Assembly (NCBI GenBank): GCA_963769935.1
Contig: CAVYNY010000009.1
Coordinates: 224,001-288,000 of the forward strand
Direction: 5' to 3'
From: an uncultured delta proteobacterium
Lineage (GTDB): Bacteria; Desulfobacterota; Desulfobacteria; Desulfobacterales; JAFDCJ01
Length of the DNA stretch: 64,000 nt
Of the stretch, positions 7,950 through 56,502 are shown piece by piece. The position numbers were made by a program, and so were the translations under genes. How positions within the stretch are numbered: the stretch's first letter is position 1; each line of letters begins with the position of its first letter. The notes beneath the pieces are model-generated. The model searched no databases and had not been told where the DNA came from. It saw only the letters and a list, made by a program, of their open reading frames with translations.

Positions 7950-8114
7950 TTAATGATATCGATCTCCCTTTGATGAAATATTTGGTCAAACTAATCTCGA
8001 GCGCAAGTATCTTGCATATCATGAATAGGCCGTTCAGACAAGAGCCGTGTGTGACTGGCGATCAAATGCCGATATAATTGTCTGTCCGTACCTGAAATCA
8101 ACGGTCAGATAAAA

Positions 8115-10249: not shown

Positions 10250-10268
10250 TTTTTGTCTCTCCTTTTCT

Positions 10269-12279: not shown

Positions 12280-14589
12280 TCAAGGCGCATTTGGCTGGGC
12301 CAATTTTTTTTCGATATAATTCAACATATCGCGTCCGATGGGATTGCCGGGGTGTTTTTCAATCATCCGTTCGGCGAAATCCCTGGCTTTAATCAGTTTT
12401 CCGCTTTTCAGATAGTGGTCGGCCACGGCATACAGATAGTCCAGGTTGTCGGGTTCAATTTCGAGGGCTCCCAGCAGAGCGGCCTCGGCCTCCATATCCC
12501 GCTTCATTTGCTGCAGCAATAAACCTAAATTGTAGCGCACCCGCGCCCGGTCCGGCATGCCTTTGGCTGCAATCTCAAGATGCCCGGCCGCTTCAGCATA
12601 CTTTTTCTTTTCCGCCAGCAGCAGTCCCAGTGAATATTGCACCTCGTAAAGCTCAGGATGCGCATCGACCACCTCGCGCAGCAAGGCCTCCGTTTCATCG
12701 CTGCGGCCCAATTGGTTGAACAGCATGGCCAGATTGACCTTGGCCGGGTAAAATTGACTGTCGATGCGGATGGCACCCCTAAAACTGTCAATCGCTTTTT
12801 CCGGCTGGCCCAAATTGGTGTAAATATTACCCAGGTTGTACCTGGCAAACGCAAAATCGGCCGAATATTCCATAGCTTCCTGATATTCCAGCAAGGCTGC
12901 TTGATAGCGCTTTTTCTGACTGCCGTCCAGCTGCGGGTCCTTTATTTCCGTCATACGCCGGGCGGCTTCAATGCGAACCGCTTTGACGGGATCGTACAGC
13001 ATGGCGGCCAGCAAGGCGGTCTGTTTATTTAAATCAGCAGCATTCAGCTGATCAATCGCCGTGCGTCGAATCAGGGCTTCATCGTCCGCCAGAGCCGGCT
13101 CATAGGCCTGGATGCTGTCTTTAGCCGGGTAGGAGCCCAGCAGCGACAGTGCCGTCGCCCGCACGATCACCGGATACAAGGGATCACCCGCCAGTCGAAT
13201 GAGGTTCTGAGAAGCGGCCGGCAGGTGCCGGCGGCCGGCATCGATAATCGTGCCGTAGTGGCCGGGGCGGCCGGGACCGTACCATTTGGTGAAATAATCA
13301 TCGGCCCATTGCAAGCTCTTCTCCTGATGGCAACGATTGCAGGCGTTGGGCACGCCGAGTTTCAGGCTCAGATCGGGACGCGGTATGCGAAGGCTGTGAT
13401 CCGGCCGGTAATCGATTCCCATATAGATGCGCCCCGGCATATGGCACTGGGCACACTCGGCGCCGGTACCCACGTCAAACAGCACCCGGCCGTCGGCGGA
13501 TTTGAGCGGCTCGCCTTTTTCGCCTTTTTTCTTGTGGAAATGATGGGCCCGGGCGTCATAGACGGCCGCCCGATGACACTGCAAACACAAGGCGTTGCCC
13601 GTCTTGACCGTCCTGACACTATGCACATCATGGCAGTCGCTGCAGCGCACCCCGCGCGCGTACATTTTACTCTGGGTAAACGAGCCGTAGACATAAACCT
13701 CCTCCTGGATCTGGCCGTCGGGATAATAGAGGTCTTCCTCGAGCAGGCTCGGCAGCATCGTATCCATCAAATCCGGCTCGGCATGGGTGTAATCTCCCAG
13801 TATGGCCCGCCGGGCATGGCAGGGGGCACACAGTTCCACCAGTTTGTGCGAGTTAATGCCGGATGTTTTCACCATTAGCCGGTAATTTTCAGCGGCGGGC
13901 CGCGCCATATCGGGCAATTCGGCCCACTTCACGTGATCCGATCCCGGGCCATGGCAGGCCTCGCAGCTGACATCGATTTCCGACCAGGTGGTGCGATATG
14001 AATCCGTATTGAGATCGTAATTTTTTTTCAAATTGGTGGAATGGCATTCGGCGCACATTCCGTTCCAATTCTGTCCGGCATTGGTCCAGTAAAGCCAGTC
14101 GGCAGGATCGATCGGGGCGTCCGGATACAGATGATACCATTTTTTTTCTCTGACATCCCAGGCAATGGGCAGGCATTGCAATCTCCCGCCGGGAAACGGG
14201 ATCAGGTACTGCTGCAAGGGATACACACCGAAGGTATACTTGACTTCATAATCATCCATTTTCCCGTCCGCTCCCTGGGTATGGACAAAAAATCGGCCGT
14301 CCTTGCGGTAAAATCGCGACGTAACCCCGAAGCGCTCGAAGACCGCGTTGTCAAAATTTCCCAGCACGGTTTGATCATTGGCCTCATCCATGGCCAGATC
14401 ATGCGGAGACCCCCGCCACTTGTCGAATTCACTTTTATGACATTCGGCACATTTTTGCCCGCCGACAAAGGCCGCCGGAGGCGCCGGCGCAGCGGGCGCC
14501 CGGAAGTATTGCTGCTTGAGCACATATGCCGGAATGGAGAGCACAATAACAAGCGTTGCAATGATTCCGGTTATTTTCCAGTTTCGCAT
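12280..14589 (-). CDS. Membrane-anchored octaheme c-type cytochrome with HEAT-like and TPR repeats
   Basis: Eight CxxCH motifs (CAECH x2, CEACH, CAPCH, CSDCH, CLQCH, CAQCH, CNRCH); N-terminal TM; C-terminal TPRs (ARYNLGN, VQYSLGLL, VRYNLGLL). Confidence 0.9.
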   Translation of the reverse strand: MRNWKITGIIATLVIVLSIPAYVLKQQYFRAPAAPAPPAAFVGGQKCAECHKSEFDKWRGSPHDLAMDEANDQTVLGNFDNAVFERFGVTSRFYRKDGRFFVHTQGADGKMDDYEVKYTFGVYPLQQYLIPFPGGRLQCLPIAWDVREKKWYHLYPDAPIDPADWLYWTNAGQNWNGMCAECHSTNLKKNYDLNTDSYRTTWSEIDVSCEACHGPGSDHVKWAELPDMARPAAENYRLMVKTSGINSHKLVELCAPCHARRAILGDYTHAEPDLMDTMLPSLLEEDLYYPDGQIQEEVYVYGSFTQSKMYARGVRCSDCHDVHSVRTVKTGNALCLQCHRAAVYDARAHHFHKKKGEKGEPLKSADGRVLFDVGTGAECAQCHMPGRIYMGIDYRPDHSLRIPRPDLSLKLGVPNACNRCHQEKSLQWADDYFTKWYGPGRPGHYGTIIDAGRRHLPAASQNLIRLAGDPLYPVIVRATALSLLGSYPAKDSIQAYEPALADDEALIRRTAIDQLNAADLNKQTALLAAMLYDPVKAVRIEAARRMTEIKDPQLDGSQKKRYQAALLEYQEAMEYSADFAFARYNLGNIYTNLGQPEKAIDSFRGAIRIDSQFYPAKVNLAMLFNQLGRSDETEALLREVVDAHPELYEVQYSLGLLLAEKKKYAEAAGHLEIAAKGMPDRARVRYNLGLLLQQMKRDMEAEAALLGALEIEPDNLDYLYAVADHYLKSGKLIKARDFAERMIEKHPGNPIGRDMLNYIEKKLAQPNAP

Positions 14590-15113
14590 CAGGCCTTCTT
14601 CACAGGATACACGACTTGCTCGGTTTTGAATTCACTGCGTTTTATTGTTCGACTCGTATCTACTTTCACAATGCCGTTTTCTATGACCAGTGGATGTATA
14701 TCCAATGGCCGCGGCGCAGGCGGGCTGATGACATTGCCGGTGATATCAAAGGCCGAAGCATGACAGGGACAGGCGAATCTCTTTTCTCGCTCCACCCAGG
14801 GGACGGTGCAGCCGAGATGGGTGCATTTGCGCGACAAGGCCAGAAATCCGCCGTCTGCCAGCCGCGCAAGATAAAACCGGCCGCGCACAAAAGCGGTCAC
14901 CGAATCAGGCACAAATGTATTGACGGCGCCGGCGGTAACGACGGCATCGGCGTTTTCCGGGTGCGCTTGGGGTTTGCCCGGCCGCAAAAAAGCAAATGCG
15001 ACGGCAATGAACTCGGCCAGCGCCACAAAACCCAGGGCGAACCAGAGTTTGGTTAGAAAACTGCGGCGGGAGGAACCTGCCGGTGTGGCTTTCTCTTTGA
15101 GTTGATTTGGCAT
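14589..15113 (-). CDS. Rieske [2Fe-2S] subunit of a Rieske/cytochrome b complex
   Basis: Tat motif SRRSFL plus TM; CTHLGC and CPCHAS boxes; PAPRPL. Confidence 0.95.
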   Translation of the reverse strand: MPNQLKEKATPAGSSRRSFLTKLWFALGFVALAEFIAVAFAFLRPGKPQAHPENADAVVTAGAVNTFVPDSVTAFVRGRFYLARLADGGFLALSRKCTHLGCTVPWVEREKRFACPCHASAFDITGNVISPPAPRPLDIHPLVIENGIVKVDTSRTIKRSEFKTEQVVYPVKKA

Positions 15114-15180
15114 GAGAATATCCTAAACAACTTCTTGGTGGTTTCCTACTATATCAAAACAATAAAACATCTTCGAGAAA

Positions 15181-15210
15181 GCCGGAGTGCTGGAGTATTG
15201 GAGTATTGGA
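15181..15210. repeat. Downstream arm of the inverted 8-bp tandem repeat around the four-helix-bundle gene
   Basis: GCCGGAGTGCTGGAGTATTGGAGTATTGGA abuts the stop codon; its reverse complement matches 15713-15742 at 26/30. Confidence 0.9.
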
Positions 15211-15645
15211 TTAATCATTTCCATATAGAGCATTGCTTTCCTTTATGACTAGGTGGTCTGTCCAGTCTCCCTTGGCCCTTTTGAGTTCTAAGCTTTCGAC
15301 TAATTTAAGCAGGCCATTTTCAAGTTTATATGCCAGAGTGTCAAGAGTTCCGAATTCTTCTTCAGTGATCTGCCCTGACGCTCTGTAGGCAAATAGCCCG
15401 GATACCGATTCCCCGAGAGATCCGAGGGCTATATTAAGAAAATTCAGATACTCATGAATAGATCGCCTGCAATACCCTTCTGCAATGTTCCGGTGAACGG
15501 AGTCACTTGATGCTATTGCCTGTCCTGCGACTCGCTTTAATTCGTAAGGAAATTTTCTGAAGATACGAAATGTTTGCTGATAATATTCAATTGCATCATT
15601 CCATACCCTCAATTTCTGGTATCCACGATTTTTATTCTTTCGCAT
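15211..15645 (-). CDS. Four helix bundle protein (23S rRNA intervening-sequence protein family)
   Basis: YQKLRVWNDA, Q...SSDSVHRNIAEGY.R and YLNFLNIALGSLGE motifs; more AT-rich than its neighbours. Confidence 0.92.
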   Translation of the reverse strand: MRKNKNRGYQKLRVWNDAIEYYQQTFRIFRKFPYELKRVAGQAIASSDSVHRNIAEGYCRRSIHEYLNFLNIALGSLGESVSGLFAYRASGQITEEEFGTLDTLAYKLENGLLKLVESLELKRAKGDWTDHLVIKESNALYGND

Positions 15646-15688
15646 TCTTAAATACCCTGTAATCTATGCAGTTCTTACTCATTTTCTT

Positions 15689-15742
15689 TCCATTACTCCA
15701 CTACTCCACTACTCCATTACTCCAATACTCCACTAATCCGGC
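15689..15742. repeat. Upstream arm of the inverted 8-bp tandem repeat: (TCCAHTAM)x6 + TCCGGC
   Basis: tccattac tccactac tccactac tccattac tccaatac tccactaa tccggc read directly. Confidence 0.9.
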
Positions 15743-15801
15743 AACGTTATCCAACTTATCTAAACCGGAGTGCGTTGAGTATTATAGACCAACCTCCACT
15801 A

Positions 15802-17187
15802 CTACCACGGCCACACCAGCGCCATCTCCTTTCCCCGGAACCAGATCCCGGTTACGGTCAAAATTAAAAATGCCGTCAACAATAAAACAAAGACTGCCTG
15901 GACGGCTTCGTTGTTGTTGGCGTGAAATCCCTGCTTCATCAGCAGGTAAAATCCGATGATTCCCACCAGGATAAGGACCGCCGGCAGCAGGCCGTTGCTG
16001 ATTGTGGAGGAAATCGCCGGCATCCAGGCCGCAAAATCAATCCCAAATTCATCTGCCACGATTCCGGGCGGTGTAATGATCAGGGCAATTGCCGCAGCGA
16101 TGACGGCCATTTTCCGGCCCCGGTAGGAAGCAAACCAGACGCCGGCGGTATCGGCATCATAGCGCAGATACGGCAGAAAAAATAACAGCCCGATGATGGT
16201 AACCGGTATGACAAAGACCGCGAACAGGGGGTGGAAATGCAGCAGCAGCTCCTGTAAGCCGGCAAAATACCAGGGCGCTTTGGTGGGATTGGGGCTGAGA
16301 CCCGGATTGGCCTTGGCTTCCAAAGGAGCATTAAACAAGATCGATAAAAGCATCATCAGCGCGATCAGCAGTGCGGCCACGACCAGTTCACGTACAACAA
16401 GGTTCGGAATGGTAGCTGCCGACTCCCCCCGGTCCTGCCCATCTCCGTCGGGCTTCCGCGGGATCACCAATCCGCGGGCTTTGCGTATCCGCCAGAAATG
16501 AAACGGCATGAGGCAAATGAGACCGGCGGGAATAATGGCGGTGTGGATGGCAAAAAAGATCGACAGGGTGGTCGGGCCGATATCGGATCCGCCCCGGACC
16601 AGCCTTTGCAGCCCCAAACCGATTCCGGGAATGTATTCCAGCATGCCGGTGCAGATGGTGACGGCCCAGAATGCAAGCTGATCCCACGGGAGCAAATAGC
16701 CGGTGAAGTTCGACCCCAAGACGAGAAGGAACAGCGCCAGTCCGATGACCCAGTTAAACTGCCTGGGTGAGTGAAATGCTCCGCTGAAAAATACCCGTAT
16801 AAAGTGGAGCAGAACGACCAGCAGCAGCGCATTGGCGCTCCAGTGATGCAGGTTGCGGATCAACTGACCGAAATTGACCGCGTTCTGCAGGTGGACAATG
16901 GATTCATAGGCCCGGTCCGGAACCGGCTGGTAGGCAAATTTGAGCATCAGGCCCGTAGCGAAAAGCATCACCACCAGCACCAGCGCCATCCCGCCGAGCC
17001 CCCAGGTAAGGGTGAATTTTAACGTGCGCCGGGGAACCGTTTGCGGGCGAAAATGCAGCAGCAGGCTGTTAAACAGCTGGCGGTATCGCTGCCGATCGAG
17101 GACACCCTGGTAAGTGCCGGGCAAGATGGAATACCGGATTCGCTGAAAAAGATTGAGCCGGTCCGATGTTACACTTTGAAGCGGCAT
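15802..17187 (-). CDS. Cytochrome b/b6 with fused subunit-IV-like region
   Basis: WGLGG, IRNLHHWSAN, LHFIRVF, FTGYLLPWDQLAFWA, FFAIHT...PFHF and KAPWYF motifs. Confidence 0.93.
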   Translation of the reverse strand: MPLQSVTSDRLNLFQRIRYSILPGTYQGVLDRQRYRQLFNSLLLHFRPQTVPRRTLKFTLTWGLGGMALVLVVMLFATGLMLKFAYQPVPDRAYESIVHLQNAVNFGQLIRNLHHWSANALLLVVLLHFIRVFFSGAFHSPRQFNWVIGLALFLLVLGSNFTGYLLPWDQLAFWAVTICTGMLEYIPGIGLGLQRLVRGGSDIGPTTLSIFFAIHTAIIPAGLICLMPFHFWRIRKARGLVIPRKPDGDGQDRGESAATIPNLVVRELVVAALLIALMMLLSILFNAPLEAKANPGLSPNPTKAPWYFAGLQELLLHFHPLFAVFVIPVTIIGLLFFLPYLRYDADTAGVWFASYRGRKMAVIAAAIALIITPPGIVADEFGIDFAAWMPAISSTISNGLLPAVLILVGIIGFYLLMKQGFHANNNEAVQAVFVLLLTAFLILTVTGIWFRGKEMALVWPW

Positions 17188-43167: not shown

Positions 43168-43204
43168 AAAAAAACCCCGTCCATATAATATTCAGACGGG
43201 GTTT
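43168..43204 (-). terminator. Rho-independent terminator after metF
   Basis: AAACCCCGTC / GACGGGGTTT stem with a T-run on the minus strand. Confidence 0.75.
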
Positions 43205-43324: not shown

Positions 43325-44251
43325 TCATTCCACCTTGGGTCGCGGCAGTACCTGGGCGAGCTCGGCAATTTCCGGTACCCGGTGCTCCCACTCGATGGCC
43401 ATCAGATGTACACCGGCGATGCCCTTCATTTCTTTGAACTCTTCGATCTGCTCACAGGCGATTTTGATGCCTTCGTCGGCAGCCTTGCCTTTGCCGGCGG
43501 CCTGCAGCCTTTTAATGATGGCTTCGGGTACGTCCATGCCGGGAACCTTGGATTGCATGTATCTGGCCATGCCGACGCTTTTCATCGGTGTCACACCGGC
43601 CAGGATATAAATTTTTTCGGTCAGTCCCATGTCGTTGGCTTGCTTGACCCATTCCCGGAATTTTTCCATGTTGTAGATGCACTGGGTCTGGATAAAATCC
43701 GTTCCGGCCTCGACTTTTTTTGCCAGGCGATGCACGCGCCAGCGAAAGGGCTCGGCAAAAGGATTGGCGGCCGCCCCGATAAAAATTTTAGGGGGTTCGA
43801 CAATGTCTTCGCCGCTCAAAAACTTGCCCTCATCCCGCATGCGCTTGACCATCTGGATCAACTGCATGGAATCAAGGTCAAAGACGCTTTTGGCGGTCGG
43901 ATGATCCCCAAACTGCTGGTGGTCGCCTGAAAGACACAGCATGTTGCGGATACCATGGGCATAGGCCCCCAGGATATCACTTTGCATGGCCAAACGGTTG
44001 CGATCCCGGCACACCATCTGGTAGTTGGGCTCCAGGCCTTCCTGCACCAGGATAAGTGAAGCCGCCCAGCTTGACATGCGCACGACGGAAGTCTGGTTAT
44101 CTGTGATGTTGACCGAATCCACGTTTCCCTTTAAATAGGAAGCCTTTTTCCGAACCTCGTCCGCGCTGGTTCCGCGCGGCGGTCCTAATTCACCGGTAAA
44201 TGCAAAATGTCCCGCATTTAAGACCTTTTCCAGATTACTGCCTGATTTCAT
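43325..44251 (-). CDS. metF: Methylenetetrahydrofolate reductase (MetF, acetogen-type), copy 1
   Basis: TGELGPPRG, NITDNQ, CRDRNRLAMQSDILGA, LCLSGDH and KKVEAGTDFIQTQ motifs. Confidence 0.95.
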   Translation of the reverse strand: MKSGSNLEKVLNAGHFAFTGELGPPRGTSADEVRKKASYLKGNVDSVNITDNQTSVVRMSSWAASLILVQEGLEPNYQMVCRDRNRLAMQSDILGAYAHGIRNMLCLSGDHQQFGDHPTAKSVFDLDSMQLIQMVKRMRDEGKFLSGEDIVEPPKIFIGAAANPFAEPFRWRVHRLAKKVEAGTDFIQTQCIYNMEKFREWVKQANDMGLTEKIYILAGVTPMKSVGMARYMQSKVPGMDVPEAIIKRLQAAGKGKAADEGIKIACEQIEEFKEMKGIAGVHLMAIEWEHRVPEIAELAQVLPRPKVE

Positions 44252-44279
44252 CTCGGTTTCCTTTGCCCTCGTTGATATC

Positions 44280-44961
44280 TTATTTTGCGGCCGCCTTTTC
44301 CGGTTTCTTATAGCCGGGTTGAATCAAGGTGCGCGGCACCTGATTTTGCCAATCAACCGCCGGAGTAATTTTTAAAATACAGTCCAGCCGGCCCTGCCTT
44401 TCCAGACGCTCATAGATCATATACCAGGCGCAAGGCTGATCCGGGTTGATTTCACAGCTGCCCTGGTTGGTTCCGCCGCACGGTCCGTTGTAGAGGCCCT
44501 TGGCGCACATGGTGACCGGACAGATCCCGGCGGTCTGCCCCAACACGCAACTGCTGCAGGAGCGGCACCTTTCTTCATACCACCCCACTGCCTGGTTGAC
44601 CGCCAGACCGCAGGTGTCGACGGCGGGATAAACCGGAACATCCGGGAATCTCTCCGCCAGAAACTGAATACCGACGCCGCAGGCCATCGAGATGACGGCT
44701 TCATAGTCTTTGACCAGATCATCCAGCTCGGCCAGATATTCGCGGTCGCACTGTCTTTCAACCGTTTTGGCGCCGACCTCGATGGGGTTGTCTTTCAGCC
44801 TGCGGGCCATATCCAATTCGGCATTCAAGACATCGACTTCTTTCTCGCCGCCTGCCAGGCAGACGGCGACACAGGTTCCGCATCCGACGGTCAGAACCTT
44901 CTTGTAGGGCGTTAAGCAGACCCATTATCTCTTCAAAAGGTTTTCTTTTGGCAACTATCAT
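44280..44961 (-). CDS. metV: MetV (MTHFR Fe-S/Zn subunit), +1 insertion at ~44908
   Basis: MIVAKRKPFEEI..., then shifted YKKVLTVGCGTCVAVCLAGGEKEV, ERQCD, MACGVG, CRSCSSC...CPVTMCAKGLYNGPCGG...CAW; span is 3n+1. Confidence 0.9.
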
Positions 44962-45040
44962 AGTATCCTCCTGTTGTACCGAACGCTTTGCGTCCGGTCG
45001 AGCACTGCGCATCGTCGCACGACCAAGCCCGGGCGAGTTA

Positions 45041-46360
45041 CTACATGGCCATTTCGGGATGAAAGACCAAGACGTCTTTAAGATCGTCTCCCAGATAGGT
45101 CCTTTCGTTCGGTCCCAGTATTCCCATTGAGAGGCAGAGGAGGGTCCAGATGTGGACCACTGAATAACCTCCGCCGAAATGCTCGCTGAGCTCATGAATC
45201 TGAGCGTGGCAGTTATGGCAGCCGGCAACGCAGTAGCCCGCGCCGGTTTTCTGGATCTGCTCATCCTTGAGCCGGCCGAATTGCAGACGCTGCTCTTTGA
45301 AACCGGCCTGGAGGAATCCGCCGCCGCCGCCGCAACAATAATTGTTGGACCTGTTGGGCTCCATATCGATAAAATTTTCTTCGCCTACAATGGATTTGAT
45401 CACAAATCGCAAATCCTCGGCAATCGGGTCCCCATAGGTCTTGCGCACGATCTGACAAGGGTCCTGAACCGTAAATTTGACCTTCAAATCCTTGTTCCAG
45501 TCGGAATTGACCTTCAGCTTGCCCTCGCGAATCCATTTGGCATAGTATTCATAGATGTTCTTGACGACAAAGTTATGCTCGATGTTGAATTTTTTCAGTC
45601 CTGCCAGGACTGAGAAGGTGACGTGCCCTCACTCGGTGTTGAGATAGACCTTGCAGCCGAGATCATCGGCCTGTTTGGCCGTGGTGCGGGTGATGTGCTC
45701 CCAGGCCTCATTGTCGGAAAGAAACATGCAGTAGTTCTCGCCGCCCCATCCTTTGCTGCCGTATGTCCAGTCGACCCCGGCCGCATGCAGGATCTTCCAG
45801 AGCGGAACCATTTCATCGGGTTCGGTGACCGGCTCCCTGGAATTCTGGTTCAAAAAGAATTCAGCGCCCTGCTTATCGATGGGAGCCTCCATGTCTTTAA
45901 ACTCGGGCTGGGCCTCGCGGTATTCCTCCAGAACGTCTTCCACCACGAATTGAAAATCCTCCGGGCTCGCTCCCATGGCGCTGCAGCTGTCATTTTTCAG
46001 CGCCATGTCGCAGGAGCCCAGGATGCCCTTGGGACGCTCCTCCCGGGGGCGCATGCCGCGGACATTGTAAACCAGCTGCGGTATATCAATTTTCATGGGA
46101 CAAACATAAATGCAGCGCTGGCACATGGTGCACATCCAGGGCCAGTCCGACTTCAGAATTTCCTCGTCCATCCCGAGCGCCGCCATGCGCAGGAATTTGC
46201 GGGGGTCCAGCCCTTCCAGACCCGTCGCCGGGCAGCCGGAAGAACAAGCCCCGCAGGTGAGGCACAAGTTCAGATTGCCGCCGTCGGGCAGCACCTTTTT
46301 GACCGCATCCAATAATGTGCTTTTTTTCTTGGCTCCCAGCACTAGGATATCCTCTTTCAT
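45041..46360 (-). CDS. HdrD-like Fe-S/CCG-domain oxidoreductase, predicted selenoprotein (Sec244), 439 aa
   Basis: Two CxxCxxCxxxCP motifs; in-frame TGA at 45631-45629 in YLNTE-U-GH; frame continues without stops into QDPC, CCGGGGG and GCHNC. Confidence 0.9.
45595..45613 (-). promoter_or_regulatory. SECIS-like hairpin (HdrD-like gene)
   Basis: UCAGUCCU-GGC-AGGACUGA perfect 8-bp stem starting at +16 after the UGA. Confidence 0.85.
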
Positions 46361-46806
46361 AATTCTTTTCCTCTTTTATCCGTTTTGGGTATTTTTCTAT
46401 GGTTTAAAGGGTTCGGTCCCAGGGACCGGATCAGATCCGCCATCTCTTTGGCATAGGCTGCAAAAGTAGGGCCTTCCCCGGATGATAGATTGTACATCCG
46501 GACCCGCTCGCCTTCCAGACCGATTTCTTCGAGCAGCATCTTTACGTGCGCCACCCGCTCCCTGGCTCTAAAATTGCCTTCATTATAATGACAGGTGCCT
46601 TCCAGACACCCGACCACATACACACCGTCGGCACCCTGCTGGATGGCCCGCAGCAAGTGCCTCACATCCACTTTCCCGGTACACGGGATTCTGATAATTT
46701 TTACGTTCGAAGGGTATTGAAGTCGCATGGAACCTGCCAGGTCCGCGGCTGAATACCCTCAATAATCACAGCAAAAAGCTATGATGTTGGGTTCAAATTC
46801 GGTCAT
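46357..46806 (-). CDS. mvhD: MvhD/FrhD-family [2Fe-2S] subunit, predicted selenoprotein (Sec16), 149 aa
   Basis: ATG 46806 after GGAGG: MTEFEPNIIAFCCDY-U-GYSAADLAGSMRLQYP (TGA 46761-46759); then PCTGKVD and GADGVYVVGCLEGTCHY. Confidence 0.93.
46730..46744 (-). promoter_or_regulatory. SECIS-like hairpin (mvhD)
   Basis: GGACCU-GGC-AGGUUC stem starting at +15 after the UGA. Confidence 0.75.
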
Positions 46807-46808
46807 CA

Positions 46809-49800
46809 CTATCCTCCTGCCAGCAAGGCATCAATTTTACACATAATCTGCTCATCTTCGTAAAAACTCAGGCTGATCGCCTCCCGCGGGCAAACGCTGG
46901 CACATATGCCGCAGCCATGGCAAATGGCATCGTCGATTTCAACAACGCCTTCATCGGAATTGAAGGCCGGCACCTGAAAAGGACACGACCTGACACAGGT
47001 CAGACATTTCACGCAGTGTTCCGCATCGACCTTGGCGGTAATGGCCGAAAGCTTGATTTCCGGTTTGGCCAGGAAGGTTGCGGCCCGCGAGGCCGCGGCC
47101 TGGGCCTGGGCGATGGATTCTGAAATCAGCTTGGGGCCGTGGGCGGTGCCGCACAAAAATATACCATCTCCCGGCATGTCAACCGGACGCAGTTTGACAT
47201 GGGCTTCAATGAAAAATCCCTCCGGGTTGCGGTTCAGCTTCATGATGCGGCTCAATTCTTCCGTGTCTTCGGCCACCACGCCGGCGCTCAACGCCAGCAG
47301 ATCGGCCCGGATCGCCAGATTGCGCTGCAGGATGTGATCCTTGACGGACACCGTCAAGCCTTCCGAATCCTCCATGACCTGCGGCGCAGCTTCCGGGGTA
47401 AATCGAATAAAAATAACCCCTAGCTGCCTGGCCTCCTTGTAGTAATCCTCCAGCAGTCCGTAGGTTCGCATATCGCGGTACAGAATATAAATCTGGGCCT
47501 CCGGATTGAGTTTTTTAATCGCCAGGGCGTTTTTGACGGCCGACTGGCAGCAGATGCGCGAACAATTCTCATTTTTTTCGTTGCGCGATCCCACGCACTG
47601 AATCATCACGACGCTGGCCAGATCCCCAGCGCCCTTTTCCGCAAGCCGATCGCTCAATTCCAGCTGGGTGACCACCCGTTCGCTTTCCGCATAAAGATAT
47701 TCCTGGGGCCGGTACTCCCGGGCGCCGGTAGCCACGATAATCACCCCGTGATTGATGCTGATTTCCTTAGCGTCGGCCCCCACGGCCAGATGGGTTGAAA
47801 AATTCCCCTTGTAGCCGCCGAAGGCGGTAATCCCGGCCTCGGTTAAGACTTCAATCTTGGCGTGCGCCTGCACCCCGGCGATGAGTTCCTGCAGATAGGC
47901 ACGGATATCAGCGCCTTCGATGGTGTGATGCAGACGGGCGGCCAGGCCGCCGAGCTGCTTTTCCTTTTCCACCAGCACGACGTCAAAACCCTGATTACCC
48001 AGACCCAGGGCGGCGTTCATCCCCGCGATGCCGCCGCCGATCACCAGCGCCCGCTGTTGCACGGGAATGACCTTCTCCCGGAGCGGCTTCAATGCCGCCG
48101 CGCGGGCCACCGACATCCGCACCAGATCCTTGGCCTTGGTGGTCGCCTCCGGCTTGGTCTGGGAATGAACCCAGGAATCCTGATTGCGGATATTGGCCAT
48201 TTCAAAAAGGTATTTGTTCAACCCGCAGGCTTCCAGGGTTTCCATGAACATCGGTTCATGGGTCTTGGGACTGCAGGAGGCCACGACCACCCGATTCAGC
48301 TGATGCTCCAGGATTTTTTCCTTTATTTTATCCTGGGTATCCTGGCTGCAGGTAAAAAGATTCTCATCCGCATAGACCACATGGGGCAGCCCCTCGGCAT
48401 AAGCCCTGACGGACGGCACATCGACCACCCCGCCGATGTTGATGCCGCAGTTGCAGACAAATACACCGATGCGCGGCGCTTGTTCGGAAACGTCAACTTC
48501 TTCCGGAACCTCAACCTTTTCGGTTTCCGTGCCCCGGGCTGCGGCCAGATGGCCGCCGGCCGCACAGGCGGCGGCACTGGCTTCGGTCACGGCGCCCGGA
48601 ATATCTTTGGGCCCCTGAAATAACCCGCAGGTATAAATGCCGGGACGCGATGTGGACACCGGTGCAAACGGGCGGGTGGCAACAAAATTGTATTTGTTCA
48701 GTTCGATGCCCAGGCGCCGGGCCAGTTCGACCGAACTTTGGGCAATGCCCAACCCTACCGAAAGCACCACCATGCTGAAAGTTTCTTCCGCCTGGCTGCC
48801 GTCCTCATCCACGTACTTGACCAGCAGGTCGCCGGTTTCAGGAATTTCGGAAATGGTATGAATGCGGGATTTGGAGAACCGCACGCCCTCTTTGTCTTTG
48901 GCCCTCAGGTAGTACTTCTCGTAGTCCTTGCCGAAGGTCCGGATATCCATGTTAAAAATAACACAGTCCAGCTCGCCGTGGGCGTGTTCCTTGGCAATCA
49001 TGGCTTCTTTGATCGCATACATGCAGCAGACCGAGGAGCAGTAACCGTTGCCGCAGCGATTGGTATCCCGCGACCCGACACATTGCAGCCAGGCGATTTT
49101 TTTGGGCGCTTCCCGGTCCAGCGGCCGCATCAAATGACCGAAATACGGTCCCGAAGCGCTTAGAATTCTCTCGAATTCCTCGCTGGTGACCACGTTGGCG
49201 TATTTGCCGTAGCCGAGAAAATCAAGGCCGGAAGGATCATAGCCCTCGCTGCCGGCGGATAGAACGACCGAGCCGACCCTGAGGCTGGTTTCGCGTTGGG
49301 TGTCATCGTAGGATACGGCCTTGGCCAGACACATATTTTCACACAGACCGCAGCCGATGCAAATCTCCGGATCAATGGCAAATGCCAGCGGAACGGCCTG
49401 GGGATATTCGATATAGGTCGCCCGCCGGTCATCCAGTCCCTTGTTATAGGAATTGACGGCCGTCACCGGACAGTGCCGCGCGCAATCGCCGCATCCGGTG
49501 CATTTGGCCACATCGATATAGCGGGGATGATTGGTCAGAGTGACCGTGAAATCGCCGGGCTCACCCTCGACGGCGGTTACCTCGCTGTTGGTAATGATTT
49601 CGATATTCAAGTGCCGGCCGACCTCGACCAGTTTGGGCGAGATCACTCACATGGCACAGTCGTTGGTGGGAAACGTCTTGTCCAGCCGCGCCATCATGCC
49701 GCCGATCGTAGGCGACTTTTCGACCAGATACACCTTGTATTCCGAGTTGGCCAGGTCCAGAGCCGCCTGCATGCCGGCGATCCCGGCCCCCACCACCATG

Positions 49801-49835
49801 ACCGAACCGCTTGTTATTCCTTTTTCCGATCCCAT
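46809..49835 (-). CDS. hdrA: Large heterodisulfide reductase subunit A-like flavoprotein, predicted selenoprotein (Sec63), 1008 aa
   Basis: GAGIAG...[25 protein letters not shown] (TGA 49649-49647); ferredoxin motifs, QCVGSR...CSSVCCM, second GGGIAG FAD motif, C-terminal 2x[4Fe-4S]. Confidence 0.95.
49614..49631 (-). promoter_or_regulatory. SECIS-like hairpin (hdrA)
   Basis: CUGGUCG-AGGU-CGGCCGG starting at +16; identical in both hdrA paralogs. Confidence 0.85.
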
Positions 49836-49844
49836 GAACACTCC

Positions 49845-50594
49845 TTATAATACCGAAAAAACAGGTTTGCTGTCTTCCATTGCCTCGAAGGCAACCCTGT
49901 TTGTCTTTTCCAGATCCGCGAGCAGATAAGACACCCGTTTGAGCGCCAGCCCCGTGCTCCGGCTGATTTCCCTGACGGATCGGTTTCCCGTTTTAACCGC
50001 TGCGTATATGAGATTCTTGTGATACTCCCTCTCCAGAACCGAATCCATTATGGTTTCATAAGAGTCCGTATCCCATTTGCGCCCGTAAACATCACCCCGG
50101 GCGGTTATTTTCAGTTCTTTGCTCACCAGCCAGCGCAGATTCTCGGCACTGACGGTCATGAGGGCTGCTTCCAACTGCAGGGCGAAGGCCTGGACATCCA
50201 GAGCGCCCTGCTCCCTGACGGATTCGGTGACCTCGGTGGCGATCTGAGCAAAACGCTGGGCCTCGGCCGATGAAACCCACGCCAGATGAAGCCGGTCCCG
50301 CCCGATTCCAGTCAGATCCAGCAGGTTGCGGGTTAATCGGATCTTTTTGTCGGCGTATACATTACCCTCCAGGTAATGGCAGTCACCGATGTGTCAGCCG
50401 GCCACCAGCACGCCGTCGGCGCCCTCCCGCAATGCATTGACAATGAAGACGGGGTCAACCCGTCCCGAGCACATGACCCGGATGGTTCTCAGGTTGCTGG
50501 GATACTGCAACCGGGAAACACCGGCCAGATCCGCACCGGCGTATGCACACCAGTTGCACAGAAACGCAACAATTTTAGGTTCAAAATCGGACAT
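49845..50594 (-). CDS. mvhD: MvhD-family protein with C-terminal extension (winged-HTH-like), predicted selenoprotein (Sec67), 249 aa
   Basis: [39 protein letters not shown] (TGA 50396-50394), WVSSAE; frame continues to 49845 with [24 protein letters not shown]. Confidence 0.92.
50360..50378 (-). promoter_or_regulatory. SECIS-like hairpin (long mvhD)
   Basis: CAUUACC-UGGAG-GGUAAUG perfect 7-bp stem starting at +16. Confidence 0.85.
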
Positions 50595-50670
50595 ACTTTT
50601 ATCCTTTGGTACCTTCAGAGCTATTTAATGCAAAAAAATATTATTGGGCTATTTTCCTTATTTTCAAGTG

Positions 50671-50841
50671 ATTGAAAATTGTCGATTGAATATTGAATAT
50701 TTAAGGTACGCCTTTGGCGGATCCATTTTTATTAAAACGACTTGTCAAAGAATGGTGGAACGACCCCCGGCGCTTGAACCACATGTAGATACGCAAGCGA
50801 CTTCCACAAATATTCAATTTTCAATCTTCAATATTCAATTT
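50671..50841. repeat. Inverted 7-bp-period repeat element (ATTGAAD)n...(HTTCAAT)n inside the hdr operon
   Basis: Arms at 50671-50702 and 50808-50841; same family as 62050..62258. Confidence 0.85.
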
Positions 50842-50842
50842 C

Positions 50843-53800
50843 CTATCCCGCCTTTACCGAACACACCGCCGCCATGATCTGCTGATCCCGGAAATGCAGC
50901 ATATCGATGGCCTTTTTGGGGCAGCTGGACGCACACAGGCCGCAGCCTTTGCAGGAAGCCGATATGTTCCGGGCGCGGTAGCCTTTGCCCTCAACCTCTT
51001 CCAGTTCGATGGCCCCGAACGGGCACACTTCGACGCACAAACCGCAGCCGATGCATTGGTCGGCATCGACTTTTGAAACCAGGGGCGAAACCGAAATGGC
51101 GGATTTGGCCAGAACCGTCGCGGCGCGGCCGGCAGCGGCCATGGCCTGGGAAATCGATTCATCAATGGGTTTGGGATAATGTGCCAAACCACAGACAAAC
51201 AGTCCGTCGGAGGCAAAATCCACCGGCCTCAGCTTGGCATGTGCCTCCATAAAGAAATTATCCGCATTGACCGGCAGCTTGTAAAAAGCCGCCAGCCGGC
51301 TGTTTTCCGTCGGAACAATGGCCGTTGCCAGGTTGATCACATCGGCTTTAATCAGCACCTTCCGTTGCAAAATCGGATCGAAAACCCGCACTTCGAGTCC
51401 GCCGTCCGTCTCGGACACAGTCGGTTTGTTGTCCAGGTTGTAGCGGATAAAAATAACGCCTTTGGCCCGGGCTTCTTTGTAAAGGGCCTCCCGTTCCCCG
51501 AACGTGCGGATGTCGCGATGCAAAATATATACGTTCGCATCGGGGTGCCGGTCCTTGACGGCAATGGCCTGGGAAACGGATGTCGTACAGCATATTCTGG
51601 AACAGTAGGGCCGTTGCTCGTCGCGGGAGCCCACACACTGGATGAACACAACATTGGAAGCGTCATTCAGCAGTTCAGGATGATGGTCGAGTTCATGCCA
51701 GCGCAGCACCCTTGGATTTTGGCCGTATAGATATTCAGCCGTAGCGGAAGCCTCCGCCCCCGTGGCAATCACCACTGCTCCGTGCCGGACGACGCGGGTC
51801 AAATTGCCGGATGCCACCTGGGTTTCAAAATTACCCACGAATCCCTTGGCATTGGCCACCTCGGCATTGAGGAATACTTCAACATCCGGGTGATTTTGCA
51901 CGTCGGCGATCAAATCGTCCAAAAACGTCCGAACGTCCCGACCGCGCCAGGTGGCGGTAATATCCCGTGCGGCGCCGCCCAGTTCGGCTGAACGTTCGAT
52001 AAGAACCGCCGGAAAGCCCTGGTCGGCAAGACTGAGAGCGGCGGTCATTCCGGCGACACCGCCGCCGATGACCAGCGCCGTCTTGTTGACGTCCACCGAA
52101 ATATCCGGAATCGGCTCCAGCAGCGCCGCGCGGGCCGCCGCCATCCGCACGAGATCTTTGGCTTTGGCGGTGGCGGCGTCATGATCGCCGGAATGCACCC
52201 AGGTGCACTGGTTGCGGATATTGGCCATGTCGAACAAATAGGCATTTACGCCGGCATTGCGGATGGTCTCCTGGAACAGCGGTTCGTGGGTTCGGGGGGT
52301 GCAGGCGGCCACCACAATCCGATTTAATTTTTGTTTACGAATAATTTCCACCATTTTCTCCTGCGTATCCTGACTGCAGGAAAAAAGGTTTTCTTCCGCG
52401 TGAACCACATAAGGCAGGCCGGCGGCATATTCCGTAATCGCCGGAACATCGGCGATCCCGCCGATATTGATCCCGCAGTTGCAGACAAAGACCCCGATCC
52501 GCGGCGGCTCACCGCTGACGTCCTTTTCGGCGGGAAACTGCTTTTCCTTGACAAGGGTTCCGCGCGCCGACGACAGCGCCAGGCCGGCACTGCAGGCGGC
52601 GGCACTGGCCTCCATCACGGACTGGGGAATGTCCTTGCAGCCCTGGATCACACCGGCAACGTAAATCCCGGGCCGTGAGGTGGCCACCGGGCGCACATCG
52701 TCGGTTTTCACGAAATTATAGTGATTGAGCTCAATTCCCAGGTTTTGGGCCACCTCGACCGCCGAATCGGCGGGCTCCATGCCCACGGACAGCACGACCA
52801 TGTCAAAATCTTCCGTTATTCTCCGGCCGTCATCGGTGACGTACTCCAGGCTCAGGGTACCGCTCTCATCAGCCTGGGTGATGGTGTGGACCTTGGAACA
52901 AATAAAGCGGACGCCGCCGGCCTTAGCCCGGTCGTAATAGCGCTCGAAATCCTTGCCGTGGGTCCGCATATCCATATAAAATATGCTTCCCTGAAATCCG
53001 GCCGCCAGATGCTCCCCGGCGATGACCGCCTCCTTGATCGCATACATACAGCAAACTGAAGAACAGTACTCATTGTCGCATTTGTTCTGATCGCGGGAGC
53101 CGACACACTGCAGCCAGGCGATTTTAGCGGGCGGCCTGCCGTCGGAAGGCCGTAGCACGTGGCCGCCCGTCGGCCCGCCGGCCGAGAGAATTCTTTCAAA
53201 TTCCATACTGGTCACGACGTTGGCAAGTCGGGCGTACTGATAATTGTCGAAGGCGGAAGGATCGAAGGTTTTAAAACCGGCGGTAACGATGACGGACCCG
53301 ACATTGAGGGAAATTTCCTCCTCTTTGTCATCAAAATTAACGGCACCGGTCGGGCAGATTTTTTGGCACGCGCCGCATTTGCCTTTTTTAAGAAAAATAC
53401 ACCGGTCCGGATCGATCACATATTTAAGGGGCACGGCCTGGGCATAGGGGACATAAATAGCCTTGCGCTTGCTGATCCCCTTGTTGAATTCATCGGCGGT
53501 CTTGGCCGGACATTTTTCAGCACAGGCGCCGCAGGCAATGCACTTGTCCAAATCTACGTAGCGGGGCGACCTCTTTATCTTAGCGGTGAAATTGCCCTCT
53601 TCCCCCTGGATGGCGGTAAGTTTTGAAAGCGTGAGAAGTTCGATGTTCAGATGCCGGCCGACCTCGACCAGTTTGGGCGAAATAATTCACATTGAACAGT
53701 CGTTGGTCGGAAAGGTCTTGTCCAGTTGCGCCATGGCACCGCCGATGGCCGCCGATTCCTCGACCAGGTATACGTAGTAGCCGGAATCAGCCAGGTCCAG

Positions 53801-53875
53801 GGCTGCCTGCATCCCGCTGATGCCGCCGCCGAGAACCAGCACCGATCCGATTGTGACCGCATTGTCCTTTTTCAT
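50843..53875 (-). CDS. hdrA: Large heterodisulfide reductase subunit A-like flavoprotein, predicted selenoprotein (Sec63), 1010 aa
   Basis: GGGISG...[25 protein letters not shown] (TGA 53689-53687); open frame into ORF 50843..53551; same domain order as 46809..49835. Confidence 0.95.
53654..53671 (-). promoter_or_regulatory. SECIS-like hairpin (hdrA)
   Basis: CUGGUCG-AGGU-CGGCCGG starting at +16 after the UGA. Confidence 0.85.
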
Positions 53876-54265
53876 GGTATTTATCCCGTCCTCAAAAATT
53901 ATTCCGGCTGTTGCCGTTTAAATGCGCTTTTGGTTAAAAATTAAAAAGAGTACTTTTTATCAAAATATACAAAGGATGTCAAGGAAAACCGTGTCTTATT
54001 AAACGAATGTAATCCAAATAATATCCAAAAATTAATAATATGCAGCCGATTCGGCTTGTTAAACCATACCAATTTAGTCATAAAAAAACAATTGATATTA
54101 ATAATCCAAACGTATATAAATTTTACGTGATTTGAATTAAAATTTTCATTTCAATTCCAAAGAAGAAGCGCTTTGATCGGCAAAGCACCATCATCGTTCC
54201 AACGGTGCTGCTGCTCAAGTCCCTGGGGAGGGCGCGTTGCATCGCCCGCCAAAGGATGTGCATCA

Positions 54266-55198
54266 ATGAGTGTAAAGACACCGAGCAAACTTGAAAAGAT
54301 TCTGAGTGAAGGCCATTTGGCCGTGACTTCCGAATGCGGACCTCCCCGGGGCAGCGATCCGGAGACAATCATCAAAAAAGCCGAGCTGATTAAAAACCAT
54401 GTGGACGCCATCAATATTACCGACAATCAAACGTCGGTCACTCGCCTGTGCAGCCTGGCCGCCTGTATCCGTTTGAAACTGCTGGGGCTCGAACCGGTTT
54501 TGCAGATGGTGACCCGCGACCGCAATCGCATCGCACTGCAAAGCGACATCCTGGGAGCCGCCTCGTTTGATATTCACAATATCCTGTGTCTGTCCGGCGA
54601 CCACCAGAGTTTCGGTGATTGCGCTCAGGGCCGGAATGTTCACGATATAGACTCCATGCAGCTGATTCAGACGGTGCGACATATGCGCGATGAGGGCAAA
54701 TTTCTCGGCGGCGACGAGATCAAACGGCCGCCGCAAATGTTTGTGGGGGCGGCCGCCAATCCGTTTGCCGATCCATTTGAAATCCGCGTTCCCCGGCTGG
54801 CCAAAAAAATCGCCGCCGGCGCGGAATTCATCCAGACCCAGTGTATTTACAACCTGGACAAATTTGAAGAATGGATGCGGCAGGTCCGCGACCGGGGTCT
54901 GCACGAAAAAGTTTACATTATGGCCGGACTGACTCCCATAAAGAATGTCGGCATGGCCAGGTACATGAAAAAGCGCGTACCCGGCATGGATGTGCCCGAT
55001 GAAATCGTGGACCGGCTGGCCGGCACGCCCAAAGAAAAGCAGGCTGAAGAGGGAATCAAAATTTGCATCGAATCCATTCAGCGCCTCAAAGAGGTGGAAG
55101 GTGTGTCCGGCTTTCATATCATGGCCATCGAATGGGAAGAAAAAGTGCCCGAAATAGTAGAAGCCGCCGGTCTCTATCCCCGGCTTAAGCTTGATTGA
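54266..55198 (+). CDS. metF: Methylenetetrahydrofolate reductase (MetF), copy 2
   Basis: TSECGPPRG, NITDNQ, TRDRNRIALQSDILGA, LCLSGDH and AGAEFIQTQ motifs; start MSVKTP after AAGGA. Confidence 0.95.
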   Translation: MSVKTPSKLEKILSEGHLAVTSECGPPRGSDPETIIKKAELIKNHVDAINITDNQTSVTRLCSLAACIRLKLLGLEPVLQMVTRDRNRIALQSDILGAASFDIHNILCLSGDHQSFGDCAQGRNVHDIDSMQLIQTVRHMRDEGKFLGGDEIKRPPQMFVGAAANPFADPFEIRVPRLAKKIAAGAEFIQTQCIYNLDKFEEWMRQVRDRGLHEKVYIMAGLTPIKNVGMARYMKKRVPGMDVPDEIVDRLAGTPKEKQAEEGIKICIESIQRLKEVEGVSGFHIMAIEWEEKVPEIVEAAGLYPRLKLD

Positions 55199-55289: not shown

Positions 55290-55679
55290 ATGAGCGGGAA
55301 AAAAAGAATTCTGGTTGTGGATGATGAGCCTGATTTCGCTGCCATTGTGCAGCAAAACCTGGAAAAAGAAGGCTTTGAGGTCGATATTGCTTACGACGGG
55401 GTTGAAGGCCTTGAAAAAGTCCATGCCAATCCACCCGATGCCATCGTGCTGGATGTCATGATGCCGGAAAAAGACGGATACAAGGTCTGTGCGGAGTTGA
55501 AGGCCGATGAGCGCTATGCCGGTATTCCCATTATTCTGCTGACCGCCGTGGCATCCCATGTAACCTCCACCCGCTACTCGCATGCTGACGGCAAGAGCAC
55601 GGAGGCCGATGAGTACCTGGCCAAACCGGCGTCTGCGGAGCAGATCACCGAAACCATCAAGGGGCTGCTGGGCTTGTAA
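55290..55679 (+). CDS. Single-domain response regulator
   Basis: ILVVDDE, IVLDVMMP, LLTA and KP motifs. Confidence 0.93.
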   Translation: MSGKKRILVVDDEPDFAAIVQQNLEKEGFEVDIAYDGVEGLEKVHANPPDAIVLDVMMPEKDGYKVCAELKADERYAGIPIILLTAVASHVTSTRYSHADGKSTEADEYLAKPASAEQITETIKGLLGL

Positions 55680-55686: not shown

Positions 55687-56502
55687 ATGAAGGTATTCTG
55701 CATCTTAAGCGACGAGCGGGTGTACAGTTCGCGATCGCCGGCTATGTTTTCCAGGGTGCTTCAGCGGGTTGGAATCCAGGCTGTTTACGTGCCGTTTAAA
55801 GTCGAACCGCAAAATATCGGTCTCGCGCTGCAAAGCCTTAGAACATTAAATATTGCCGGCGCCAACATCACCGTTCCCTATAAAGAAAAGGTTATCCCGC
55901 ACCTGGATGTTCTATCGGAAGGCGCCAATATCATCGGCGCCATCAACACCATCGTATGCAATGGCAACAGCCTCAAAGGCTACAATACCAACGCCATCGG
56001 CTTCATGGACGCCTTAAACAGCGTCGGCTTTGAGGTGGCCGGTAGATCGGCGGTAGTATTCGGAACGGGCGGGGCCGCCAAGGCGGTTGTTTTCATGCTG
56101 AACTGGCTCAGGGCCGGCAATATCCGGGTCGCAGGCCGCGATCCGCAGAAAGCGGCCGCCGTCGCCGAACGGTTTAAAGTCGAAGCATCTACCATCGAGG
56201 AACTTGCGCTACGGCCGATGGCCGCCGACATCGTGGTCAATGCCGCCTCCGTCTCAAGCCCCCGGGAAGCACCTGAACTTGCACGGTTGACCCAAGAGCT
56301 CCAATTGCCGGCTTGCCGGCTGGTGATAGATCTCAACTATGGCCGCCGCCAGAATTTTTGGCGGGATATGGCCGCCCGCCTGGGCATCCAATTCATGGAT
56401 GGACTGCCGGCCCTGGCTTTCCAGGCCCGGCGGACCTTGGCCCTGTGGACGAGGGTTGAAGTCGATCCAGCGGAATTTTTAAAGGCACTGGAGGAGGGAT
56501 AG
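55687..56502 (+). CDS. aroE: Shikimate dehydrogenase-like protein (divergent active site)
   Basis: GANITVPYKE, IGAINTI, GYNTN, GTGGAAKAV, DLNY and FQA motifs. Confidence 0.75.
   Translation: MKVFCILSDERVYSSRSPAMFSRVLQRVGIQAVYVPFKVEPQNIGLALQSLRTLNIAGANITVPYKEKVIPHLDVLSEGANIIGAINTIVCNGNSLKGYNTNAIGFMDALNSVGFEVAGRSAVVFGTGGAAKAVVFMLNWLRAGNIRVAGRDPQKAAAVAERFKVEASTIEELALRPMAADIVVNAASVSSPREAPELARLTQELQLPACRLVIDLNYGRRQNFWRDMAARLGIQFMDGLPALAFQARRTLALWTRVEVDPAEFLKALEEG

Follow-up and report, generated by a model that had tools for sequence, protein, structure and literature searches.

A selenocysteine-recoded Hdr-MvhD-MetVF operon with a DsrK-type subunit in an uncultured deltaproteobacterium of the sulfate-reducer type

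Background

Sulfate reducers that oxidize organic carbon completely pose an open question of bioenergetics: how they dispose of the electrons of methyl-tetrahydrofolate (methyl-THF), whose potential is too high for the reduction of NAD+. The methylene-/methyl-THF couple has an E0' of -200 mV, compared with -320 mV for NAD+ and about -70 mV for menadiol (PMC13391211, PMC10861901), so that methyl-THF is unable to reduce NAD+ unaided. The third electron carrier of the type IV methylene-THF reductases (MTHFRs) is also still unknown (PMC13391211). Here we analyze a locus that bears on both issues, a seven-gene operon on the minus strand of a 64,000-nucleotide (nt) stretch of DNA from an uncultured delta proteobacterium of the Desulfobacterales (assembly GCA_963769935.1, contig CAVYNY010000009.1, positions 224,001 to 288,000; referred to as "the window"). 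The operon combines two fused HdrA proteins, two MvhD proteins and an iron-sulfur (Fe-S) protein with MetV and MetF, and it offers a candidate for the third carrier: a soluble subunit with selenocysteine (Sec) at the sulfur-relay position of DsrK. We propose, with a probability of roughly 0.45, that the seven genes encode a Sec-recoded, Hdr-type methylene-THF oxidoreductase that oxidizes methyl-THF and passes electrons to DsrC-bound sulfur through the DsrK-type Sec subunit. The locus is relevant to annotation as well: each of its five Sec genes is truncated by standard gene callers.

Results

Five adjacent Sec-recoded genes

The operon and the elements associated with it comprise the following features (positions of the window):

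50843..53875, minus strand: hdrA1, a fused double HdrA similar to BamE, 1010 amino acids (aa), with Sec63 in C60-x-x-U63 (from Pfam and alignments)
50671..50839, no strand: inverted-repeat element with 32-nt arms between hdrA1 and mvhD1, from a repeat family that is spread over the whole genome
49845..50594, minus strand: mvhD1, an MvhD of 249 aa with Sec67 (G-U-H) and a C-terminal extension of about 120 aa
46809..49835, minus strand: hdrA2, a second fused double HdrA, 1008 aa, with Sec63 counted from the ATG
46357..46806, minus strand: mvhD2, a short MvhD of 149 aa with Sec16 (C-x-x-U)
45041..46360, minus strand: DsrK/TmcB/HmcF-type Fe-S protein ("HdrD-like", also called the CCG subunit below), 439 aa, with Sec244 in TE-U-GH
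44280..44961, minus strand: metV, with one extra base near 44910 in the assembly
43325..44251, minus strand: metF1, methylene-THF reductase catalytic subunit, 308 aa
43175..43201, minus strand: likely intrinsic terminator with a 7-base-pair (bp) GC stem, a 13-nt loop and a T-run

Comparison of sequences confirmed that the five adjacent upstream genes are Sec-recoded, with one UGA each. At the coordinates proposed in an earlier, purely sequence-based reading of this DNA (the original prediction), a single in-frame TGA is found in hdrA1 (53687-53689, U63), mvhD1 (50394-50396, U67), hdrA2 (49647-49649, U63 from the ATG), mvhD2 (46759-46761, U16) and the HdrD-like gene (45629-45631, U244), and the frames stay open to 1010, 249, 1008, 149 and 439 aa, respectively. 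As the comparison set we used the best 80 of 546 related loci from a genome collection, and codons were counted in those tblastn matches within the 80 loci that reached at least 55% identity. TGA is the codon in 80/80 matches of the HdrD-like (CCG) gene, 17/17 of HdrA1, 16/16 of HdrA2 and 15/15 of MvhD1, and in 21 of 31 matches of MvhD2, the other ten having TGC or TGT; orthologs carry TGA or Cys codons only, and each TGA occupies a Cys position. These counts do not represent independent events, because the loci are related to one another and three are duplicates of same-genus genomes that were also used. In a separate draw from the phylum, 20 close matches of the CCG gene were found in 17 of 151 genomes; 16 contain one TGA and four are stop-free, three of the latter having ECGH at the Sec position.

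Hairpins lie 10-16 nt past each UGA. Their folding energy is unremarkable in four of the five genes (rank 0.2-0.64 among all codons of the same gene), while that of MvhD2 ranks first among 120 codons; it is the frozen synonymous sites that support the hairpin predicted after each TGA. In all five TGA groups the conservation of four-fold third positions is 0.80-1.0 in the hairpin vs 0.48-0.57 elsewhere, and the hairpin is the most conserved synonymous window in 5/5 groups (the MvhD1 figure comes from two sites only). Cys-coded MvhD genes exhibit no synonymous-site effect in the hairpin region (0.51 vs 0.59).

The Sec machinery whose presence was to be expected is encoded in the genome (8.0 Mb, 41 contigs): selB, the tRNA-Sec gene (selC) and selD are intact, the last in two copies that each have their own TGA, but selA (G000:C22:678107-679262) lies in two frames, frameshifted in this assembly. 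The assembly is indel-prone, with EF-Tu split in both copies and nine of 128 tested loci spanning two frames. We therefore regard the breaks in selA and metV as likely assembly errors, with contig support for metV only: the one-base frameshift near 44910 is absent from the contigs of 4/4 runs (runs with a word share <0.2 were left out). The TGA at 53687-9 is covered by independent contigs with 0 differences, and none of the 40 listed differences (of 444) between contigs and the stretch falls on a TGA. The ortholog codon counts, together with the independent contigs at 53687-9, rule out a sequencing error or a true stop.

Organization of the operon

Pfam assignments agree with the predicted gene identities: two HdrA-type flavoproteins, two FlpD/MvhD proteins, one protein with Fer4 and CCG domains, and a metV-metF core (MetV, PF12225; MetF, PF02219). 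As foreseen, there are no hdrB, hdrC or hydrogenase genes at the locus. The genes are closely packed, with spacers of 248, 9, 2, -4, 79 and 28 bp along the run. The one wide gap, which corresponds to the predicted repeat-containing interval of about 250 bp, contains an AT-rich inverted repeat whose 32-nt arms are 88% identical; this element belongs to a dispersed family with 195 blastn matches genome-wide, and one arm occurs also in the equivalent hdrA1-mvhD1 gap of two relatives (G004 and G012). The terminator proposed after metF is readable at 43175-43201, although it was missed by a terminator scan with a loop limit of 8 nt. A scan for the sigma-54 consensus revealed nothing above chance and no match at all in the promoter gap, and sigma-70 matches were near chance level. 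Contigs of two RNA-library runs cover 30/30 bins of the stretch; in two RNA runs the contigs end at the intergenic gap, which is covered in a DNA run (a weak hint from one study).

The Sec-bearing CCG subunit

The designation "HdrD-like" is imprecise for this protein, which resembles DsrK, TmcB and HmcF in having a single non-cubane site. It contains two cubane motifs and one complete CCG site; the distal non-cubane ligands are lost and the N-terminal site retains only C211 and U244. The two complete CCG motifs of methanogen-type HdrD are thus not present, while one CCG motif, a T/GECGH-type site with Sec for Cys and the His place the protein in the DsrK/TmcB/HmcF class. It is not DsrK proper, as the operon has no dsrM-type membrane partner and the protein has no equivalent of Asp500. 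U244 (TE-U-GH) aligns with the GECGH Cys of the DsrK (contig C18) and the TmcB-like protein (C16) from the same genome, i.e. with the position of DsrK Cys329, the non-ligating Cys proposed to be catalytic. Sequence identity to DsrK, TmcB and HmcF is 23-28%, below the NCBIfam cut-offs, and identity to the BamD of the same genome, which has both CCG sites and lacks ECGH, is 25%. The predicted model (pLDDT 83) matches the EtfD and HdrB folds, the best match being EtfD (9ojn; TM 0.65 by query, 18% identity). Neither the PDB sequence search nor the fold search with this subunit brought up DsrK, hence the top rank of EtfD weighs nothing against DsrK; the PDB sequence searches with the operon proteins returned only HdrA, HdrB/C and distant MTHFRs.

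The Cys of GECGH is strictly conserved in DsrK, HmcF and TmcB and has been proposed to be catalytic (PMC10861901) and to serve as a sulfur relay in DsrC-trisulfide reduction (bioRxiv 10.64898/2026.08.25.746951). Sec at this position, together with the loss of the distal ligands, therefore favors a sulfur-carrier partner such as DsrC. The original suggestion of DsrC as acceptor has thereby gained support from a motif, and we consider a DsrC-type exit for the electrons an even bet.

Two paralogs of the UGH type were identified elsewhere in the genome: one (G000:C32:81945-85856) is 36% identical and adjoins degenerate HdrA halves, the other (C41:1734-2588) is about 81% identical, split, and located on a 5-kb contig.

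HdrA and MvhD proteins

Each HdrA consists of two fused HdrA units, in the order FAD domain with an inserted ferredoxin, HdrA N-terminal cluster domain, second FAD domain and C-terminal ferredoxin; HdrA1 and HdrA2 are 54% identical. In methanogen HdrA, U63 aligns with the Cys located three residues beyond the first Cys of the PTNDC motif. The signature Glu356/Lys409 is the criterion for an electron-bifurcating HdrA flavin (PMC9430772), and in either protein only the first FAD site has both equivalents (E227/K281 in HdrA1, E222/K276 in HdrA2), which are kept in 11/11 HdrA1-type and 17/17 HdrA2-type orthologs. The second site reads D730/S768 in HdrA1, with the Lys missing in nine of ten orthologs, and S728/K768 in HdrA2, with the Glu missing in 19/19. 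Whether this amounts to true bifurcation we judge to be a toss-up. Neither HdrA1 nor HdrA2 contains a GltD-type NAD(P)H insert, and the locus does not encode an NADH-linked reaction. The alignment of the first HdrA does not start before residue 19 in three loci (L039, L041 and L051), in which the first FAD-binding motif may therefore be altered.

The C-terminal tail of MvhD1 (120 aa) is conserved and is predicted from its sequence to form a winged helix-turn-helix: an Atlas feature search gave a score of 0.96, with HTH_5 on 96% of the top cluster, and there was no Pfam match in this region at 1e-8.

Occurrence and gene order in relatives

A synteny search recovered the full seven-gene order in eight of the 80 loci (L025, L026, L028, L037, L039, L041, L051 and L094), two of which (L037 and L094) have a GltD-type insert in the first HdrA; identity of the operon to its relatives is 80-90%. 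The order mvhD-hdrD-metV occurs in 14/80 loci, and in 15 further ones metV and hdrA lie within 10 kb in a different order, so that metV accompanies hdrA near the CCG gene in 29/80 loci, rearranged orders included. Six other loci have mvhD-hdrD and one has metV only. The same gene order is also found in a record titled Desulfosudis oleivorans, which makes the proposed function testable in a cultured lineage.

Judged by sequence appearance, the Sec CCG gene often precedes genes for a sigma-54 activator and NifX-like, Mrp and CooS proteins, and it often follows a small Cys-rich or TusA-like gene (L052, L057, L060, L073, L079 and others). The small Cys-rich gene is presumably CGGC-like.

metF paralogs and the deleted partner operon

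Upstream of hdrA1 the window contains:

54157..54252, plus strand: metF' scar, residues 197-228 (69% identity, E 2e-9)
54263..55198, plus strand: metF2, 60% identical to metF1, the surviving gene of a divergent partner operon
55290-55679: receiver-domain gene, after metF2
55690-56502: aroE-like gene, after the receiver-domain gene

In four genomes of the same genus (G004, G008, G012 and G013) the operon stands back to back with metF'-hdrL-mvhD-metV2-metF2, followed in three of them by the receiver-domain and aroE genes, the contig of G004 ending within metF2. The HdrL of these relatives has 1477 aa, an NAD(P)H module and a Sec of its own. Relative to these four genomes, about 7 kb (metF'-hdrL-mvhD-metV2) are deleted in the window, leaving a 32-codon scar of metF' directly upstream of metF2 (54157-54262 region, plus strand) and metF2 without an adjacent metV. 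Runs of two studies yielded contigs that span the scar/metF2 junction, which rules out a misassembly. In a survey of the genus, the long MvhD was found in 8/23 genomes, most of them fragmented, and in five of the seven besides the present one metF' lies on the contig that bears this gene.

In a MetF tree (a quick IQ-TREE run without bootstrap; sequences shorter than 270 aa or with stops excluded), the MetF proteins of these operons fall into a MetF1 clade (18 rows, SH-aLRT 98), and metF2 groups with the metF2 of the relatives. MetF' forms a family of its own (clade support 100; e.g. L109:10252-11106, minus strand), about 33% identical to MetF, and heads many hdrA-mvhD-metV-metF operons (type-B loci such as L063, L065 and L076).

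The rest of the genome

The predicted setting of a (reverse) Wood-Ljungdahl pathway agrees with the presence of fhs and of acs genes (acsB) without an adjoining metF, and the sulfate-reducer context with dsrAB, dsrC and dsrMKJOP on C18. The genome also contains bamBCDEF-like genes (class II benzoyl-CoA reductase), beta-oxidation genes and a [NiFeSe] hydrogenase. A cluster on C20 (G000:C20:370307-378547, L148) encodes a molybdopterin oxidoreductase, NuoE, a NuoF-GltD fusion, MetV and MetF, and is a candidate for a formate/NADH-linked methylene-THF reductase. Another one (G000:C16:266046-276487, L149) comprises a Sec-codon HdrA N-terminal piece, NuoE, NuoF, a NuoG-HdrA fusion, MvhD, Flx-like genes and dsrC, and this run is divergent from a Tmc-like cluster; C11 contains a more distant HdrL.

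Further observations concern an orphan metV-like gene followed by genes for an EutA-like protein, a URO-D-family methyltransferase and a corrinoid protein (G000:C32:162843-167330, L150), and two minus-strand clusters of the window: a FadR-like regulator, acyl-CoA dehydrogenase, a 690-aa CCG protein and etfBA at 4071-10904, and a cytochrome b (ExtP-like), a Rieske protein and a multiheme/TPR protein at 12280-17187.

Discussion

A proposed route from methyl-THF to DsrC

According to the reading that we favor, methyl-THF would be oxidized by the complex in the reverse Wood-Ljungdahl pathway of acetyl-CoA oxidation. The high-potential electron would pass to the DsrK-type subunit, the selenol of which would serve as a sulfur relay, and electrons would leave through this Sec site onto DsrC-bound sulfur, part of them possibly being bifurcated to ferredoxin or to a docked module. 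The DsrK-type site is reducible even by menadiol (PMC10861901); at about -70 mV the exit would therefore run downhill and might cover the cost of an uphill branch. That the Hdr, MvhD and CCG proteins work with MetVF as one loose complex is the firmest part of this scheme and quite probable, because metV and hdrA cluster with the CCG gene and the MetF clade tracks the operon type; pull-downs from Sporomusa ovata also link MetVF to HdrA, HdrB and MvhD (PMC9430772). A bolder version, in which the operon would encode a soluble, Se-dependent methyl-THF:DsrC-trisulfide oxidoreductase, a quinone-independent bypass of DsrMKJOP with the two HdrA flavins bifurcating in tandem, appears doubtful. If true, such a bypass would wire the methyl branch of acetyl-CoA oxidation to sulfide release, with recovery of low-potential electrons, and the natural loss of the operon with the NAD(P)H module would show that the complex runs without NADH.

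Several observations weigh against the proposed route. The S. ovata complex is not tight and bifurcation was undetected there (PMC9430772), and the HdrD-like BamD of class II benzoyl-CoA reductase hands electrons to electron-transferring flavoprotein (ETF), not to a sulfur substrate (bioRxiv 10.64898/2026.04.10.717634). The NAD(P)H module is absent at the locus, the NuoEF/GltD-linked metVF on C20 could serve the pathway instead, and the direction of flux is not readable from sequence. The CCG subunit retains the last CCG Cys (CHNC), as in TmcB, while DsrK of the same genome has Asp (CAID). Moreover, among the 80 CCG loci 17 with at least 5 kb on both flanks have neither hdrA nor metV near the CCG gene (one of them, L032, has metF adjoining), 16 more with short flanks have neither, and 11 have hdrA only; four loci (L140, L141, L142 and L147) pair the CCG gene with hdrA-mvhD without metVF. 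The CCG subunit thus behaves as a mobile module, which argues against an exclusive role with MetVF.

Alternative explanations

The same complex might be wired like BamDEF, its CCG subunit handing the high-potential electron not to DsrC but to ETF or the menaquinone pool. HdrA1 and MvhD1 mirror BamE and BamF, BamD reduces ETF (bioRxiv 10.64898/2026.04.10.717634), menaquinone has been proposed as the acceptor in Moorella (PMC13391211), EtfD is the best fold match of the CCG model, and an etfAB/acyl-CoA dehydrogenase cluster lies within the window. Nevertheless, we find this wiring rather unlikely: the resemblance to BamD is only 25%, with BamD having both CCG sites and no ECGH, the Sec or Cys that invariably occupies the ECGH position suggests thiol chemistry, and the EtfD rank, as explained above, does not speak against DsrK.

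The operon could also house two separable modules, an HdrA-MvhD-DsrK-like general electron hub for ferredoxin and DsrC, and a MetVF that acts alone with ferredoxin or is transiently bound. The many loci with a DsrK-type gene and no metVF, the variable gene order and the purification of S. ovata MetVF without Hdr subunits (PMC9430772) are in line with such a division, which is nonetheless unlikely given that metV and hdrA persist near the CCG gene in 29/80 loci despite rearrangement, that the MetF clade follows the operon type, and that the S. ovata pull-downs (PMC9430772) link the components.

It is improbable that the complex functions reductively, reducing methylene-THF for autotrophic or anabolic purposes by confurcation of electrons that reduced ferredoxin would supply together with reduced DsrC or quinol. 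Acetogen type IV enzymes act in this direction (PMC9430772, PMC13391211), Murali et al. interpret the hdrA-metF neighborhoods of Seep-SRB reductively, and the genome has a [NiFeSe] hydrogenase; however, class II benzoyl-CoA reductase and beta-oxidation genes are typical of a complete oxidizer, and the NADH-linked metVF on C20 would be better suited to reduction.

Finally, an operon in decay, deprived of an indispensable NAD(P)H partner (HdrL) by the deletion of the divergent operon, as the partner block present in four examined relatives and the metF' on the same contig in five of the seven other long-MvhD genomes might suggest, is very improbable, since the seven frames are intact but for a metV indel absent in four runs, identity to relatives is 80-90%, RNA-library contigs cover the operon, and C11 and C16 encode further HdrL/NuoEF-HdrA modules.

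Comparison with known systems

The favored Hdr-type methylene-THF oxidoreductase is most readily compared with the type IV MTHFR MetVF-HdrCBA-MvhD of Moorella thermoacetica and S. ovata (PMC9430772), with which it shares a cluster of metV-metF, MvhD and a fused double HdrA. As in the S. ovata enzyme, each HdrA has one flavin with the E/K signature and lacks a GltD-type NAD(P)H domain; Moorella HdrA, in contrast, has this domain. Unlike type IV MTHFRs, the operon encodes two HdrA and two MvhD proteins, a DsrK-type subunit with a single non-cubane site in place of the individual subunits HdrB and HdrC and their two non-cubane clusters, and five Sec codons, in a sulfate-reducer host with DsrC. 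It would function in the manner of a type IV MTHFR, but for want of separate HdrB and HdrC we class it as a variant, not a member, of type IV. Two FADs per HdrA, originally counted among the differences, are ruled out as a novelty, since fused two-FAD HdrA proteins are known from MTHFRs of S. ovata (942 aa) and Moorella (1487 aa; PMC9430772) and from BamE.

BamE is a fused HdrA dimer in which only the N-terminal FAD has the bifurcation Lys, with a Cys59-Cys62 disulfide, and BamF is an MvhD longer by >100 aa whose winged helix docks the input module (bioRxiv 10.64898/2026.04.10.717634). The operon resembles BamDEF in the fused HdrA with an N-terminal E/K site and CxxC at 59/62 (here C-x-x-U), the long MvhD with a putative winged helix, and an HdrBC-fusion subunit; it differs in having MetVF instead of BamBC or BamGHI, a CCG subunit so distant from BamD and with an ECGH-type Sec, and the Sec of the long MvhD at GUH, not at residue 19. 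With DsrK, TmcB and HmcF (PMC10861901; bioRxiv 10.64898/2026.08.25.746951) it shares one complete CCG motif, the non-ligating T/GECGH position and the His two residues on; the differences are Sec for Cys, no membrane DsrM-type partner in the operon and the retained last CCG Cys.

The same three Sec families (CxxU HdrA, MvhD and UGH Fe-S oxidoreductase) are clustered in loci of Desulfobacterium autotrophicum HRM2 (HdrA/HdrL, MvhD, HdrD4; PMC2702500; see also PMC1976440) and in deltaproteobacterial hdrA-frhD-glpC clusters (PMC13188914). Selenoprotein clusters of the hdrA-mvhD-glpC type and six-selenoprotein operons have been published for Deltaproteobacteria (PMC13188914), and HdrA adjoining metF in sulfate reducers has been noted in print; the metVF link and the hydrogenase-free version with five Sec codons set the present operon apart from those Sec clusters as described (PMC2702500, PMC13188914, PMC1976440). 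In the open full-text literature, with supplements and subscription papers (Mock 2014, Appel 2021, Desulfobacula proteomes) outside the scope, we found no characterization of this operon; its gene order may appear in supplementary figures (S10 of PMC10553843, preprint extended data) or in Fig. 4 of PMC2702500. Its components, Sec families and overall architecture are already known, and the operon is a real, conserved, uncharacterized variant of them. What the present comparison of sequences adds is the DsrK-type Sec site, the likeness of HdrA1 and the predicted winged-helix MvhD to BamE and BamF, and the deletion of the partner operon.

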